From Candidatus Uhrbacteria bacterium (GTDB lineage: Bacteria; Patescibacteriota; Patescibacteriia; JACQRZ01): 64,000 bases of DNA. Every line of letters begins with the position of its first letter. Position 1 is the stretch's first letter. The stretch spans positions 24,116 to 88,115 of the forward strand of contig JACPHV010000002.1 in NCBI GenBank assembly GCA_016188385.1, written 5' to 3'. Both the position numbers and the translations under genes were made by a program. Below, piece by piece: positions 19,045 to 26,573 of the stretch. Below the pieces are notes generated by a model that did no database searches, was not told the DNA's origin, and was given only the letters and a program-made list of their open reading frames with translations.

Positions 19045-19097
19045 TTTGGGACGGAGGCAATTCACCCCTTTAATTCCCCTCTTGCCTCCGCCCCAAA
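19045..19097 (+). repeat. Hairpin family D, copy 1. 15-bp stem, loop attcacccctttaattcccctct.
   Basis: tttgggacggaggca / tgcctccgccccaaa arms. The loop is almost identical to the copy at 26523-26573, which has a different stem. Confidence 0.7.
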
Positions 19098-19099
19098 CG

Positions 19100-19160
19100 G
19101 AAAAACAAAATCGGATTCTTTTTAAGAGCCATTTGCTACCGCAAATGAAAGGAAAACATG
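19100..19160 (-). repeat. Repeat family A, copy 2, in inverted orientation.
   Basis: gaaaaacaaaatcggattctttttaagagc…aaaggaaaacatg is the reverse complement of copy 1. Confidence 0.7.
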
Positions 19161-19171
19161 TACATCATATA

Positions 19172-19256
19172 ACACTGGCTATGCGGTTCGGGCTTTTCCA
19201 AAGCCCTCTCCCATATTGCTCCCTCCGGTCGCAACATCGCATAGCCAGGAACGTTG
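19172..19256 (+). repeat. Structured repeat family B, copy 1. About 85 nt with an outer 11-bp stem, an inner hairpin and a conserved single-stranded core tctcccatattgctccct.
   Basis: Other copies at 24168-24252 and 26711-26800. The outer stem ctggctatgcg/cgcatagccag becomes cagcgtatgcg/cgcatacgctg in copy 3, which is compensatory. Confidence 0.7.
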
Positions 19257-19265
19257 TACGAAATG

Positions 19266-19325
19266 CATGTTTTCCTTTTGGGCTAACGCCCTGGCTCAAA
19301 AAAAGAATTCAATTTTGTTTTTTTA
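19266..19325 (+). repeat. Repeat family A, copy 3, in direct orientation.
   Basis: catgttttccttttgggctaacgccctggctcaaaaaaagaattcaattttgttttt. Confidence 0.7.
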
Positions 19326-19372
19326 TTAATTTGACAGGGGTAATAAGGAATAATCCTTTATTTTTTTAATGC

Positions 19373-20512
19373 ATGAATACAAAAATAGATACAATCATTG
19401 TTGGCGGTGGGATATCTGGTCTAAGTGCGGCATATCACTTGAAAAAGCATGGTGTAGATTTCAAATTGATTTCGGAAGATATTGGCGGTAGAATTCATGA
19501 ATCAAAAAATGGCAATATACAATACGGCGCATACTACATCATGGATATTTATACGCACACCAAAGAATTTGCCAAAATCGGACGCAAAATTAAACCGTCC
19601 GAATTAATTTTTCACAAGCGTGGCAAAGGCTACTCAATTATCCAAAAATCATTTGTCAGATATATTCCACAGTCGATTCGGTTTGCCATAATTTTGCGTA
19701 AATTCAAAAAACAATATAGCAAATTTAAAAAGGATTGTTGCAATACTTCACAAGCGGAAGTTATTAGAAATAATCCGTACTTATCAAGGCTGTACGAAAC
19801 AAACGCTGCGAAATTTATTAAAGAAAATAAAATCAACGATGTTGTGTGTCAATATATGGAGGAAATTTTACATGGCACAACTTTTACATCGGTTGATAAA
19901 CTCAACGCTTTTACATTTCTTCAATTCTCTTTGCCGTTAATCACTCCGATTCATGAGTTTGTGCTAGATAAAAAGAAAATCATAAATGATTTTAAAAATG
20001 ATATTATTTTTAATGTTGTAGACATTATAAAAAAAGAAGAAGATTATTACGTTCTAAAAACTCAAAGCAAAACATACGAAGCGTCAAATGTTGTCGTAGC
20101 AACACCACCGCACATTTCAAAAAAACTACTTCACTTGAATGATATTAAGGGTGCTGTTGACGCACACATGTTTCATATAGTCGGGCAAGTGCAGGAAAAA
20201 TGGTGCAAGGGTTATTGTAACTTATTTTCTGACGAAAACGATATGCTAGCGATTGCATTTATGCCAGACTACTCGTGCCTGTTTTACTCGAAAAACCCTA
20301 ACCCAGACTTTAGTAAATATTTTTACGATTTTAAAATTTTGGAATCACAATATTGGAATCCAGCATTCAATCTGGAAGGAAATGTTTTGTGGGACAGCAA
20401 AATAGATGATAATCTATATTTAATTGGAGATCATAATGTTTGCGGGATTGAAGATTCTTTTATTACTGGTATTTACGCAGCTAACCAGATTATTGCAAAG
20501 AAAAACCAATAA
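19373..20512 (+). CDS. FAD-dependent oxidoreductase of the flavin amine-oxidase / protoporphyrinogen-oxidase-like family.
   Basis: N-terminal dinucleotide-binding IIVGGGISGLSAAYHL…E…GGR. C-terminal …LIGDHNVCGIEDSFITGIYAANQI. Confidence 0.7.
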   Translation: MNTKIDTIIVGGGISGLSAAYHLKKHGVDFKLISEDIGGRIHESKNGNIQYGAYYIMDIYTHTKEFAKIGRKIKPSELIFHKRGKGYSIIQKSFVRYIPQSIRFAIILRKFKKQYSKFKKDCCNTSQAEVIRNNPYLSRLYETNAAKFIKENKINDVVCQYMEEILHGTTFTSVDKLNAFTFLQFSLPLITPIHEFVLDKKKIINDFKNDIIFNVVDIIKKEEDYYVLKTQSKTYEASNVVVATPPHISKKLLHLNDIKGAVDAHMFHIVGQVQEKWCKGYCNLFSDENDMLAIAFMPDYSCLFYSKNPNPDFSKYFYDFKILESQYWNPAFNLEGNVLWDSKIDDNLYLIGDHNVCGIEDSFITGIYAANQIIAKKNQ

Positions 20513-24167: not shown

Positions 24168-24252
24168 ACACTGACTATGCGGCTCGGTCTCTTTCGAGAG
24201 ACTTCACCCATATTGCTCCCTGCGGTGCAACATCGCATAGCCAGAAACATTA
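24168..24252 (+). repeat. Structured repeat family B, copy 2.
   Basis: acactgactatgcggctcggtctctttcgagagacttcacccatattgctccctgcggtgcaacatcgcatagccag. The inner hairpin gtctct-ttcg-agagac replaces gggcttt-tcc-aaagccc of copy 1. Confidence 0.7.
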
Positions 24253-24392
24253 GCTTAAATACATTTTTACATATTCCCTTTTTGCCGATCCGCTTTTCGG
24301 ATTTTCAATAAGGAGGGAGAATTGGTTCTTTTTTTACAGGGGGGGCTGTCTGGCTGTCGCCAGCCAGTTCGGATGTTTTCTCCGCTCCCGCT

Positions 24393-24413
24393 GGTCGCTC
24401 CGAAAACGATTTT
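24393..24413 (+). repeat. Repeat C, copy 2 (ggtcgctccgaaaacgatttt), preceded by the hairpin ctggctgtcgccagccag.
   Basis: Compare 21717-21737. Confidence 0.45.
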
Positions 24414-24472
24414 TAATCGAATTTTGGCTTGAAATAAGGTACAATTTAAGGATTAAAAGTAAATTTGAGGAT

Positions 24473-24661
24473 ATGAAGAAACTAACACCCAAAAATCTTT
24501 TACAAAAAAGATCCTTGCGACTTAAAACGATTTATGACGAATATGTCGAGAGTCTTACGGAACTAAGAAAAAGACATCTTGATGAGTTTACAAGTTTCGC
24601 TCGGAAATTAGAGCAACAGAAAATTGATACGATCCGCAATTCACTTAAATCAAAAGTATGA
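24473..24661 (+). CDS. Small 62-aa basic/helical protein whose stop overlaps the start of the next gene (ATGA).
   Basis: ORF with a 4-nt overlap, suggesting translational coupling with the HExxH protein. Confidence 0.35.
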   Translation: MKKLTPKNLLQKRSLRLKTIYDEYVESLTELRKRHLDEFTSFARKLEQQKIDTIRNSLKSKV

Positions 24662-26472
24662 CCGATACTGAAATTAAACCAACACCAGAGTCACCGGATG
24701 GAGCAGTAGAAAAGCCAACGATACCAGAAAAACCAGAAGTACAAATCGAGACACCCGAACAACTTGATACACTCCGGGCCGAGGCAAAGCAAGGTATTGC
24801 GGATTTAGCGCGTACAGATACGGAGGCAACACTGGGTCGGATTGAGCGAGTTACGTCATCGATAGGTAAAGGCAGTGAAGAAGGCAAAACCATGGCTGTG
24901 CGTCAAGCAAGTGAAATCAAAGCAGTAGAGCAAACTACACTCATAAAGATTGAGGCCTCAAAAATTGGACAATCACTTTCCGCAATCCCAACCGGAGAAG
25001 ATTTTGAGCGCGTAGGAACTGGCGCGCCAGTTTTTGATGGTTCTGCCGAGGAGCAAGCCGCCTCGCAAAATTTATTGATTCGTCTGGAAACCGGACAAGT
25101 CGGCGGAAAACCAGCTACGATCGAGACCGAAGCAGTATCTACAGAGGTTGAGATTAATTTTAATCCGGGAGCGCATGCAGAACAACTTCGTGAAAAAGTA
25201 AAAGGGCTCCTCGGTCGTCCCGAAATTGATAATTTCTTTTCTCAATTGCACCAAGACGATCTAAAAGATTTGGTTGGCGTACTCTCGCGTGAAAGTATGA
25301 ATCCAAAACTTGGTCGTCTTGCTGACCTTTTAAGGTCATCAGTTAAGAGTAAGGATCAATTTGCACAAAATGCCGAAAAACACACAAAAGAACAAATACG
25401 GCAATTATTTGTACAATTCAAAACAGATTTCGACAAAGTATTGGATCAAGTATTTAGCAGAGCAGAGATTCTTGGAATGGCAGAACTCGACATAGATGCG
25501 GCAATGAAAAGGAGCAATGGATTGATTTTGTCACAACGAAGAATATTAGGGCCGGGGCCAATACAAGATTTTGTTGATTCGCTCGCCTATCGCGCACTTG
25601 CTGAGGTTCGAAAGGAAATTGAGGCACAGAAGAAAGCGCAACAATCAGCAGAAATACTAGAGGCTGTTGAAGCGGTGGAAAAAAGAGAAGAACCACAAGA
25701 ATGGCTCGATCAAAAAAGAGAAGCCGCATATGCAGAGTTTGGTAAAATTTTGTCAGAACTTGAAGAATCGGGAGGTGTGGAGGGAGTACAAAAATGGTAT
25801 GCGGATTTTTTCAATCCCGCCCTCACTGAAGCTGGACTTGAACCATTGAAACCAGAAGATGTTCAAAGTTTACGCTACTTAGACGTTATATCTGAATCAT
25901 CGTCTCGTATTGCCGGAAAAGAAATTAGAAGGCCGGTTTTAATTTTTACAAACATTGGGGAATATCAGCGTTTTTCATCACGTCTTCAGGGCGAACACGG
26001 CATGTCATCGCGTGGAATGTATCTGCCACGTGATATCTTTGCAGAAGGCGATTTACTTCGAGAAACAGGACTTCTTATTGCTACAGGAAATAAAGAATTT
26101 ATTGACCATGAAGTAAGACACTCTATTGACCCTAATCTTGAAGCTCGGAAAGGTTATGATGGTATTCTTGACGAAGCTTTCGCGTATTATCAACAGGATA
26201 TTGTTGAAGGGCGATCAGAGGCATACAGACATTTAGCAAAACCGGAAGATGGCCCATGGAGAAGATTTGCAGGTTCAATCGGAGGAGAGATTTACGGGGA
26301 AACATATTCAAAAGGCGCAGAGAAAAAACTATCTAGCGACGAACTGGCAAAATTATCTCAAGATGTCGTTGCCGCAATCCGATCTATTTCTGAAAAAAGT
26401 GGGCACGTGGAAACTCAACGCATTCTCGCACAAACAAAAAGTATTGAGGAATTACTTAGGTTGGCTAAATAG
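24658..26472 (+). CDS. Hypothetical 604-aa protein: an Glu/Lys-rich, predicted helical N-terminal region (~450 aa) plus a C-terminal HExxH (IDHEVRH) domain.
   Basis: HEVRH motif. YLPRD…LLIATGNKEFIDHEVRH parallels YLPDG…SIATILHEVGH of ORF 21798-22733. Confidence 0.5.
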   Translation: MTDTEIKPTPESPDGAVEKPTIPEKPEVQIETPEQLDTLRAEAKQGIADLARTDTEATLGRIERVTSSIGKGSEEGKTMAVRQASEIKAVEQTTLIKIEASKIGQSLSAIPTGEDFERVGTGAPVFDGSAEEQAASQNLLIRLETGQVGGKPATIETEAVSTEVEINFNPGAHAEQLREKVKGLLGRPEIDNFFSQLHQDDLKDLVGVLSRESMNPKLGRLADLLRSSVKSKDQFAQNAEKHTKEQIRQLFVQFKTDFDKVLDQVFSRAEILGMAELDIDAAMKRSNGLILSQRRILGPGPIQDFVDSLAYRALAEVRKEIEAQKKAQQSAEILEAVEAVEKREEPQEWLDQKREAAYAEFGKILSELEESGGVEGVQKWYADFFNPALTEAGLEPLKPEDVQSLRYLDVISESSSRIAGKEIRRPVLIFTNIGEYQRFSSRLQGEHGMSSRGMYLPRDIFAEGDLLRETGLLIATGNKEFIDHEVRHSIDPNLEARKGYDGILDEAFAYYQQDIVEGRSEAYRHLAKPEDGPWRRFAGSIGGEIYGETYSKGAEKKLSSDELAKLSQDVVAAIRSISEKSGHVETQRILAQTKSIEELLRLAK

Positions 26473-26522
26473 ATCATTCGAACATTGCTAAAACAAATGT
26501 GCCTAAATACATAAAGTCAGGG

Positions 26523-26573
26523 TTGGCGGGGCGCAATTCACCCCCTCTAATTCCCACTCTTGCGCCCCGCCAA
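26523..26573 (+). repeat. Hairpin family D, copy 5. Perfect 13-bp stem ttggcggggcgca/tgcgccccgccaa, loop attcaccccctctaattcccactct.
   Basis: The loop is ~90% identical to copy 1, while the stem sequence differs but remains fully paired. Confidence 0.7.

Follow-up and report, generated by a model that had tools for sequence, protein, structure and literature searches.

Integrons are thought to stem from an Xer-like tyrosine recombinase that gained an extra helix for the recombination of folded, single-stranded attC sites. Their open reading frames (ORFs) and accompanying sites form arrays that lie divergently from the recombinase gene, with the insertion point adjoining it. Here we describe an array of the same layout in a stretch of 64,000 nucleotides from Candidatus Uhrbacteria (contig JACPHV010000002.1, positions 24,116 to 88,115), the whole of which is called the window in the following. 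A low-GC island at ~16.9–27 kb of the window (GC 0.34–0.45 versus 0.44–0.51 elsewhere) is an integron-like cassette array (~16.9–26.8 kb) that starts at an attI-like junction beside the gene for a XerA-type recombinase which, to judge from alignments, is without the integron-specific domain. Three intact hairpins and two truncated copies with a common C-rich loop and unrelated stems, termed C-loop hairpins below, follow genes of this array. They had been proposed to mark cassette boundaries in the manner of attC; this function falls to separate attC-like sites located 60–144 nt downstream, where exchange occurs at G|TT. The hairpin itself is an optional module within the 3' part of the cassette, found on a minority of cassettes, and represents a new, widespread structured motif that is uncatalogued. 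No published description of what appears to be an integron-like cassette system with such a recombinase in the candidate phyla radiation (CPR) was found: the literature searched for integrons and cassette arrays in CPR, Patescibacteria or Parcubacteria yielded only resistance-gene surveys, and the papers on archaeal integrons and IntegronFinder 2 make no mention of such elements.

An array of attC-like sites beside a XerA-type recombinase

The features of the array other than the hairpins are as follows (related loci are referred to by L numbers).

16050–16862, minus strand: XerA-type tyrosine recombinase of 270 aa, divergent from the cassette array and adjoining fmt (Pfam PF00589 and PF13495)
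16897–16954, plus strand: attI-like junction, conserved with L003 up to AACGA|GTTATAT (GTTATAT = 16948–16954), with divergence right after
16948–17070, plus strand: 5' end of cassette 1, consisting of the right palindrome arm (16948–17021) followed by a G-rich motif and a small hairpin (17026–17070)
19101–19322, plus strand: long, branched palindrome made up of a left arm, an attC-like core and a right arm, beginning directly at the base of hairpin copy 1
19167–19259, plus strand: attC-like site A, with R'' ATATAAC, A, L'' CTGGCTATGCG, a three-way loop with CTCCCATATTGC, L' CGCATAGCCAG, GAAC and R' GTTGTAC
21700–21740, plus strand: remnant of a cassette 5' module (..GTCGCTCCGAAAACAATTTT), recognized by its sequence against the module consensus and following truncated hairpin copy 2
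24163–24255, plus strand: attC-like site B, with R'' AGCTAAC ... L' CGCATAGCCAG, AAAC and R' ATTAGCT; its loop holds TTCACCCATATTGC
24345–24420, plus strand: 5' module of cassette 3 (G-run ... ATGTTTTCTCCGCTCCCGCTGGTCGCTCCGAAAACGATTT)
26708–26806, plus strand: attC-like site C, whose L''/L' arms CAGCGTATGCG/CGCATACGCTG covary with those of site A and whose R' is degenerate (GCCAGGC)

The recombinase narrowly passes the NCBIfam model NF040815 for XerA (221.7 bits, cut-off 220), remains below the cut-off of the integron integrase model TIGR02249 (IntI; 209.7 versus 265 bits) and is colinear with archaeal XerA (4a8e) from end to end. Its alignment with IntI4/VchIntIA (2a3v) splits where residues 179–201 (23 aa) stand opposite residues 183–249 (67 aa) of the latter. 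By these alignments, the IntI-specific insertion, i.e. the additional domain in the I2 helix region, is absent, which distinguishes the enzyme from integron integrases. For archaeal integron integrases, the additional domain has been reported to be present (PMC9668308), and in a classification of tyrosine recombinases the CPR group 'Cand' was classed as Xer/Xer-like (PMC8138268). Homologues of the window's recombinase number in the thousands in Patescibacteria, many of them more than 60% identical; those heading arrays of the present kind occur in several CPR lineages and are 43–90% identical. The divergent orientation with an adjoining insertion point is common to the window, L003, L019, L024, L102, L169, L175 and L193. 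Contigs of related metagenome-assembled genomes (MAGs) were also seen to end just upstream of the integrase gene, at a distance of 118 nt (L002, L007), 23 nt (L006) or 88 nt (L001).

Some 70–135 nt downstream of each intact hairpin in the window, and separate from it, lies a larger attC-like core element that had gone unnoticed in the original prediction. In 5' to 3' direction it comprises xxxTAAC followed by A, one arm of 11 nt, a branched loop bearing the single-stranded motif C(T/C)CACCCATATTGC, a second arm that pairs with the first, and (G/A)AAC followed by GTTxxxx. These core elements satisfy the R''-L''-loop-L'-R' architecture of integron attC sites, for example the Vibrio cholerae repeats (VCR) of Vibrio chromosomal integrons, with AAC and GTT conserved and the L arms free in sequence but paired, as illustrated by the covariation of the arms CTGGCTATGCG/CGCATAGCCAG of site A and CAGCGTATGCG/CGCATACGCTG of site C. 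Depending on the motif definition, 108–119 unique core sites with the loop motif were collected (R'' a.aTAAC, R' GTTat.t), comprising 65 distinct L'' arms and including the canonical boxes GCCTAAC and GTTAGGC. An inverted repeat of at least 10 nt bracketed 74% of the loop-motif anchors versus 20% in the shuffled control. Core sites with the loop motif were absent from 896 kb of non-CPR Xer loci, and in a structural scan nearly all sites detected were on the cassette strand, upstream of integrases from CPR members such as Uhrbacteria, Falkowbacteria and Vogelbacteria. As in attC, folding is biased toward the bottom strand, which was the more stable one in 112 of 119 core sites, a preference that persisted after composition control (98 versus 21, p = 5e-15). 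Cumulative GC skew on the plus strand rises in a near-monotonic manner across the window, such that the attC-like bottom strand would serve as the leading-strand template, although this is one data point; the same strand relation has been reported for the attC bottom strand of sedentary chromosomal integrons.

The core elements also deviate from classical attC sites. Their spacers measure 1 nt and 3–4 nt, versus about 5/5 in classical sites, they carry a conserved loop motif (CACCCATATT) whereas classical attC loops are free, and they are often extended by extra palindrome arms of ~70 nt. Site C probably is the last site of the array, given its degenerate R' box. At L024 778–749 (minus strand), two attC-like sites lie ~28 nt apart and in effect form an 'empty cassette' made up only of the paired R-box extensions; at L003 375–285 (minus strand), a chimeric site has an L'' and an L' of different types. 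The two cases resemble footprints left by recombination.

That cassettes move can be deduced from contig comparisons. A 2.18 kb segment that is 99.9% identical in L153 and L175 extends from G|TTATGTG to GGAACG|TTA and contains a hairpin in its interior; it follows an attC-like site in L153 and occupies the attI-like junction, ~84 nt from the integrase start, in L175. Comparisons of L146 with L200 and of L100 with L167 placed the breakpoints at the R' box as well. These three pairs of contigs indicate that exchange takes place at G|TT within the core sites, as in attC; to judge from the aligned contigs, the hairpin is carried inside the exchanged unit together with its upstream ORF. Upstream of the L003 integrase (81% identical to that of the window), about ten ORFs that all lie on one strand (minus strand, 10050 to 1) make up an array of 10 kb. 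Most are single-ORF units with a core element of this architecture behind them; one site is truncated on its 3' side, one is the chimera mentioned above, and one (after a Fic gene) is of a different type.

The window follows the same pattern. The segment 16948–17021 at the start of cassette 1 resembles the sequence 3' of site A, 16948–16973 is 92% complementary to 19148–19173, and 16966–17021 is 79% complementary to 19095–19150. In particular, GTTATAT (16948–16954) is the exact complement of R'' ATATAAC (19167–19173) at the end of this first unit, which conforms to integron-cassette logic: the attC of a cassette is completed by the bases with which that cassette begins. The 3' non-coding part of a window cassette is arranged in the order stop codon, hairpin, left palindrome arm and attC-like core, with the hairpin as its gene-proximal part. 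Folding of 19040–19335 yielded −73 kcal/mol for the top strand (z = −10.7) and −80.6 kcal/mol for the bottom strand (z = −13.2). The window holds no tRNA or tmRNA gene, which argues against a tRNA-targeted island; on one related contig with an array (L129, containing a tandem double hairpin), a tmRNA gene was noted at 7848–8239 on the minus strand (Rfam RF00023, 93.5 bits). Mobile modules exchanged by Xer at dif sites (IMEX, integrative mobile elements exploiting Xer, and plasmid-borne pdif) have a 28–31 bp core with two 11-bp arms and a 6–8 bp spacer. The borders described here are of the folded type and vary in their L arms, a feature that one would not anticipate in a double-stranded core recognized by its sequence; attI may nevertheless be dif.

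Unlike integron cassettes, those described here have conserved non-coding modules at both ends, each with a 5' module of its own. This 5' module of ~60 nt, present in about 30 loci (e.g. L024, L136, L155) and in the window at 17026–17070 and 24345–24420, with the remnant at 21700–21740, consists of a T-rich part, AGAGGGG(GG), TAT, AAGGTG, TTTTC[TCCGCTCCGCTAC]GAAAAC and GATTTATTTATAAGGGGAAAA..ATG (..AAGGGG..ATG). It had no match in Rfam and is possibly a promoter or 5'-untranslated-region (5'-UTR) element. A conserved leader peptide (MFSPLRYEN..) was considered and rejected, as start codon and frame vary. The G part of the module is approximately the reverse complement of the hairpin loop, allowing for pairing in RNA or in a folded palindrome; this feature fits a function of the hairpin in DNA and one in mRNA alike.

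The C-loop hairpin family in the window and beyond

Three intact and two truncated C-loop hairpins are present in the window, with the common loop ATTCACCCC..CCCCTC.

19044–19098, plus strand: copy 1, intact; 7+9 bp with one A.C mismatch, −16.0 kcal/mol, z = −4.35, model R1 68.9 bits
21608–21650, plus strand: copy 2, truncated; 5' arm and loop up to the second C-tract, 3' arm gone, 10 bits, z = −1.7
22737–22766, plus strand: copy 3, truncated; 5' arm and loop start only, no fold, z = +0.1
24050–24099, plus strand: copy 4, intact, with the variant loop TATTCACCCCGCCCCTCCTG; 16 bp, −16.5 kcal/mol, z = −6.49, model R1 22.5 bits
26522–26574, plus strand: copy 5, intact; 15 bp, −20.0 kcal/mol, z = −5.67, model R1 63.3 bits

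The original prediction had placed these five copies correctly to within a few bases. It had also described them as following five consecutive genes, which is loosely put: five copies are there, but the ORF at 19373–20512 is without one, and an in-frame stop codon interrupts the RhuM gene. The hairpins start 17, 3, 3, 6 and 50 nt after the stop codon (copies 1–5, respectively). Copies 1 and 5 have near-identical loops of 23–25 nt on wholly different stems; copies 2 and 3 align with copy 4 over 33 nt at 82–91% and diverge past the first part of the loop. On the plus strand, TTCACCCC occurs five times between 19061 and 26537; seven occurrences were counted on both strands of the whole window versus 1.46 expected. 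The covariance model R1, trained on copies from elsewhere, recovered copy 1 with E = 6e-21, copy 5 with E = 5e-19 and copy 4 with E = 4e-5, and gave no further hit that exceeded noise in the remaining ~54 kb of the window, where the housekeeping genes are free of the hairpin. A T-tract is missing on either side of all five copies.

Copies 2 and 3 are intergenic, both are broken inside the loop, and no core site is left between the genes that flank them. In the simplest reading, cassette 2 (19254–24249) is a fusion of former cassettes in which deletion of the palindromes left the 5' half of the hairpin behind. Decay of the two copies once they had been parted from their core site mildly favors a role that is tied to that site.

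Beyond the window, the design of the hairpin comprises a stem of 6–17 bp of free sequence, ranging from GTTTGAGGGAGGGGCA to AAAAAAAGCA and CCAGGCTGCA, and a loop of 18–25 nt (ATTCACCCC-N(2-9)-CCCCTCT). The search pattern used to collect the family addressed the loop only (GCAATTCACCCC N3-15 CMCTCTTGC); because it prescribed both ends of the loop as well as the closing GCA/TGC, the fact that these do not vary among the copies is in part a product of the search. Matches were obtained in at least 120 contigs from metagenomes and in 10 viral ones, and the family extends to two other CPR genomes. Both sides had changed in 14 of 17 stem pairs among 74 distinct copies, paired cells amounted to 76% versus 40–46% when the partner was slid, and the covariation score was 0.398 compared with 0.160 in shuffles, none of which (0/500) reached the observed value. 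The sequence record thus indicates a real family under selection on the loop and on pairing. The original prediction had considered that further copies might be lacking or that covariation might vanish in a larger sample as in remnants of one duplicated terminator; the copies in metagenome and viral contigs and their covariation speak otherwise, and its idea of a conserved loop on covarying stems proved true. Its proposed link to the neighboring Xer-like recombinase locus is likewise supported. When 81 integrase-anchored loci (1.14 Mb) were scanned with the model, only L019 (two copies; integrase 51% identical) and L024 (integrase 53% identical) contained the hairpin, in both cases upstream of a CPR integrase and in cassette orientation. 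Four metagenome loci with hairpins encode an integrase of 43–49% identity on the opposite strand, an arrangement like that of the window. Rfam 15 gave no match at gathering score in the window, none at E ≤ 5 within 16800–27000 and none over the element in 10 related loci.

Positionally, the hairpin is a companion of gene ends: a same-strand ORF terminates upstream of 95 of 107 copies, with a modal distance of 3 nt and a median of ~6 nt, and within the conserved flank ATAAGGTG the TAA often is the stop codon. Fifty-nine hairpins have a defined core site 60–73 or 117–144 nt downstream; most of the others are accompanied by a shortened core or lie in a phage-like setting. The same hairpin variant follows many unrelated ORFs, truncated copies are common, and tandem double hairpins occur in L121 and L129. 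Conversely, a hairpin accompanies ~46% of the core sites in loci that had been selected for hairpins and 3 of ~20 in unselected loci, and none was found in the L003 array, which has core sites after most of its ORFs.

In viral contigs, one or two hairpins reside in a long, GC-rich and structured non-coding stretch of an otherwise AT-rich genome, 200–300 nt upstream of the ATG of the large terminase gene (Pfam Terminase_6N) and in either orientation; in L087, a hairpin region of ~790 nt separates divergent genes. The phage contigs have no attC-like core near the hairpin and no complementary G motif on the same strand, and the hairpin is not at a gene 3' end, showing that the motif is not bound to attC-like sites or gene 3' ends. 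Besides C-loop hairpins, the shared phage non-coding region (L087 5811–6602, L092 4421–5172, L095 about 4230–4950, L096 1990–2712) includes long C/G tracts and two palindromes, AGTTATTCGGTATACCGAATAACT and TTCCAGTGGAA. An HNH gene precedes the region in some contigs, and the region may represent an origin or a cos/pac site.

Several further features of the hairpin were examined and discarded. Coding potential of the loop is at odds with loop lengths of 18–25 nt that are not multiples of three and do not keep a frame. G-quadruplexes or i-motifs are no general feature, as four G/C tracts are found in some copies and only two in many (those with A/T stems and phage copies). An IHF consensus (AATCAAWTT) in the 3' flank does not fit WATCAANNNNTTR, and mimicry of a sigma-70 promoter in the loop would demand an impossible hexamer spacing.

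As to the genes of the island, the RhuM-family gene region (20582–21604) is split by an in-frame TAA at 21212–21214, and in the ORF at 21743–22733 a frameshift in an A8 run near 21810 seems to be needed to join the ATG at 21743 to 21798–22733; both may be due either to sequencing errors or to decay of the cassette genes. Apart from the Fic cassette at 22898–24046, there is a second Fic-domain ORF, a short one at 26974–27555, just past the last attC-like site, the degenerate one; homologous Fic cassettes with C-loop hairpins of their own are found in L127 and L171. Farther downstream, an ORF at 27920–34372 encodes 2150 aa without a Pfam match and contains 9–10 dispersed repeats of 26–56 nt (GGCAACGTCGGCATCGGGACGACG...), implying a repeated peptide motif.

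Function of the hairpin

Our tentative preference is that the hairpin is a loop-presenting single-stranded DNA element which would be read by a putative host factor and would be accessory to the recombination or mobilization of cassettes. A stem that is constrained only by pairing, combined with an invariant bipartite loop, suggests that the loop is recognized in single-stranded form. Accordingly phrased as a mechanism, the hairpin would act as single-stranded or extruded DNA, with the stem serving only to display the loop. The loop (TTCACCC...CCCCTCT) would be read by a factor encoded by the CPR host, and the same putative factor might read TTCACCCATATT in the loop of the attC-like core. As an accessory site, the hairpin could help to assemble, orient or protect the folded recombination substrate, or mobilize the cassette in some other way, and phages may exploit this motif, too, as a binding site of the factor in transactions of phage DNA.

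Three lines of evidence favor a role in DNA. First, TTCACCC is common to the hairpin loop and the core loop (consensus cCttCaCCCAtATT), and the core is a DNA substrate with bottom-strand bias. Second, the phage copies lie in both orientations in DNA that is probably untranscribed or 5'-upstream. Third, the mismatches inside the stems are asymmetric in type: on the sense strand, A.C outnumbers G.T by 12 to 3 and Y.Y outnumbers R.R by 35 to 5 (57 stem clusters). Among these mismatches is an internal loop, TC/TC, which recurs at 6 bp from the hairpin loop and corresponds to tandem G.A in the bottom strand. The folding energy of the hairpin strands, at first sight another argument of this kind (bottom strand more stable in 81/112), was explained by base composition and has been dropped as evidence.

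Some findings weigh against this preference. The loop-reading trans factor is, on the sequence data, a putative one. The hairpin is dispensable, being absent from L003 and from most of the ~20 unselected attC-like sites (present at 3), and its close attachment to the stop codon (95/107, median ~6 nt) fits a function in mRNA at least as well. After composition control, the bottom-strand energy edge of the hairpin was gone, giving way to a slight edge of the top strand (80 versus 32). In addition, many hairpin copies are related by descent, so the counts are not independent, and for the phage region, transcription is no more than a prediction based on ORFs and promoter consensus sequences.

A distinct possibility, though the less probable one, is an element of the mRNA 3'-UTR. 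It would form after the stop codon, stabilize the 3' end or determine its position, and shield the ORF from the highly structured attC-like region; in an extension of this idea, the two C-tracts of the loop, which resemble anti-Shine–Dalgarno sequences, would pair with the G-rich leader (AGAGGGG..AAGGUG, AAGGGG) of the same or the next cassette and tune translation. This is in line with the distance to the stop codon (mode 3 nt), with the C-rich loop always being on the sense strand in cassettes, with the tandem doubles of L121 and L129, with the conserved G-rich 5' module upstream of cassette ORFs that approximates the reverse complement of the loop, with the slightly better folding of the top strand and with the optional presence of the hairpin, which would suit a gene-level accessory. 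It is harder to reconcile with the phage copies, which are off gene 3' ends, in both orientations and devoid of a same-strand G motif, and with wobble statistics that are reversed for a sense RNA (A.C 12 versus G.U 3). Moreover, the middle parts of loop and G motif are not complementary, and a strict G motif follows within 520 nt downstream in only 8 of 84 hairpins, so that a strict downstream partner for each hairpin was rejected and loop–leader pairing is not general. Copies 2 and 3, which lie between genes but off attC-like sites, have decayed.

Quite unlikely, in our assessment, is a functionless by-product, be it a piece of an attC-like site that has decayed or been duplicated, or else a small selfish repeat carried along in the conserved 3' module of a single cassette lineage. 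Here, the shared TTCACCC, the optional nature of the hairpin, the abundance of truncated copies, the occurrence of one variant after many unrelated ORFs and tandem duplication would all be accommodated. The loop, however, is constant in all recovered copies (within a pattern that fixed both of its ends) while the stems change in sequence, in a compensatory manner at 14 of 17 pairs, and the hairpin spans integrases that are only 43–53% identical and recurs in phage contigs in a different context.

We regard it as very improbable that the hairpins themselves are recombination sites, of attC type or secondary ones, which essentially is what had been proposed for them. Their position at cassette 3' ends resembles that of attC, many stems have GTT...AAC, copies 2 and 3 are both broken within the loop, and ORFs are often bracketed by a direct repeat (TAAGGTGTTT) at the 5' module and the hairpin base. 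Yet every observed breakpoint lies at R' G|TT of core sites, with the hairpin inside the exchanged unit. GTT and AAC face outward in the hairpin, instead of inward as in the pair R'' (RYYYAAC) and R' (GTTRRRY) at the base of attC, and are missing in many copies including all phage copies; the two-box R/L architecture is lacking, the hairpin being a single helix with sometimes one 2x2 internal loop. The earlier observation that it matches neither the attC nor the repetitive extragenic palindromic (REP) consensus thus is borne out. REP sequences and bacterial interspersed mosaic elements (BIMEs) are likewise short extragenic palindromes after genes, sometimes in tandem, but there the stem is conserved and the elements are genome-wide and associated with REP-associated tyrosine transposases (RAYTs), whereas the present hairpin has a free stem and a fixed loop, and no copy occurs outside the island in 64 kb.

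Ordinary factor-independent (Rho-independent) terminators of common ancestry are scarcely tenable, in agreement with the original prediction: although the GC-rich stems directly follow stop codons, the loops are large (18–25 nt, compared with about 3–8 nt in terminators) and, opposite to terminators, more conserved than the stems, the 3' flank is A-rich (GGAAAAATCAAAT) without a T-tract on either strand, the housekeeping genes of the window have none, and canonical hairpin-plus-T terminators exist in the same genomes (e.g. window 17040–17070 and L132).

Parallels and implications

For the accessory DNA element that we tentatively favor, two kinds of precedent deserve mention. The accessory sequences of the Xer sites cer and psi, bound by PepA, ArgR or ArcA, also serve an Xer-family recombinase and represent an uncut cis element 60–180 bp to one side of the core; assembly and orientation of the synapse through host proteins would be a further parallel, for the present system as a proposal only. 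Unlike the hairpin, cer and psi accessory sequences are double-stranded protein-binding DNA without a covarying hairpin, and no PepA- or ArgR-type sites were identified here. The second precedent is provided by origin hairpins such as CS-6 of the single-strand origin ssoA and those nicked by HUH enzymes (the nonanucleotide of geminiviruses and circoviruses), which present a conserved loop on a stem of free sequence, are found on mobile DNA and viruses and are active only when single-stranded or extruded. They differ in that no Rep, relaxase or primase gene is associated with the present hairpin, whose loop is much longer and bipartite and which shows no sign of nicking or priming.

A recombinase without the integron-specific insertion that heads arrays whose cassettes swap at sites of the folded type makes the origin of integrons and cassettes directly testable. 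The three-part non-coding scaffold, consisting of the G-rich 5' module, the C-loop hairpin and the extended attC-like palindrome, is without counterpart in classical cassettes and supplies new structured motifs for RNA and DNA family databases. Because contigs of MAGs often break exactly at such repeat-rich arrays, the accessory gene pool is likely to be systematically under-assembled, with arrays missing from CPR bins or fragmented in them. An invariant loop on changing stems, shared with phage contigs, points to a putative nucleic-acid-binding factor in organisms that so far cannot be cultured on their own.

More speculatively, and in our opinion unlikely as a whole, CPR bacteria might run an analogue of the integron with an Xer-type recombinase lacking I2, possibly their only recombinase, that is either ancestral or was independently invented, with the hairpin as the docking site of a putative host factor that CPR phages use as well. 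If this were true, cassettes with a hairpin could be primed, packaged or mobilized by the DNA machinery of phage or host, which would open a new route for the passage of single genes between symbionts.

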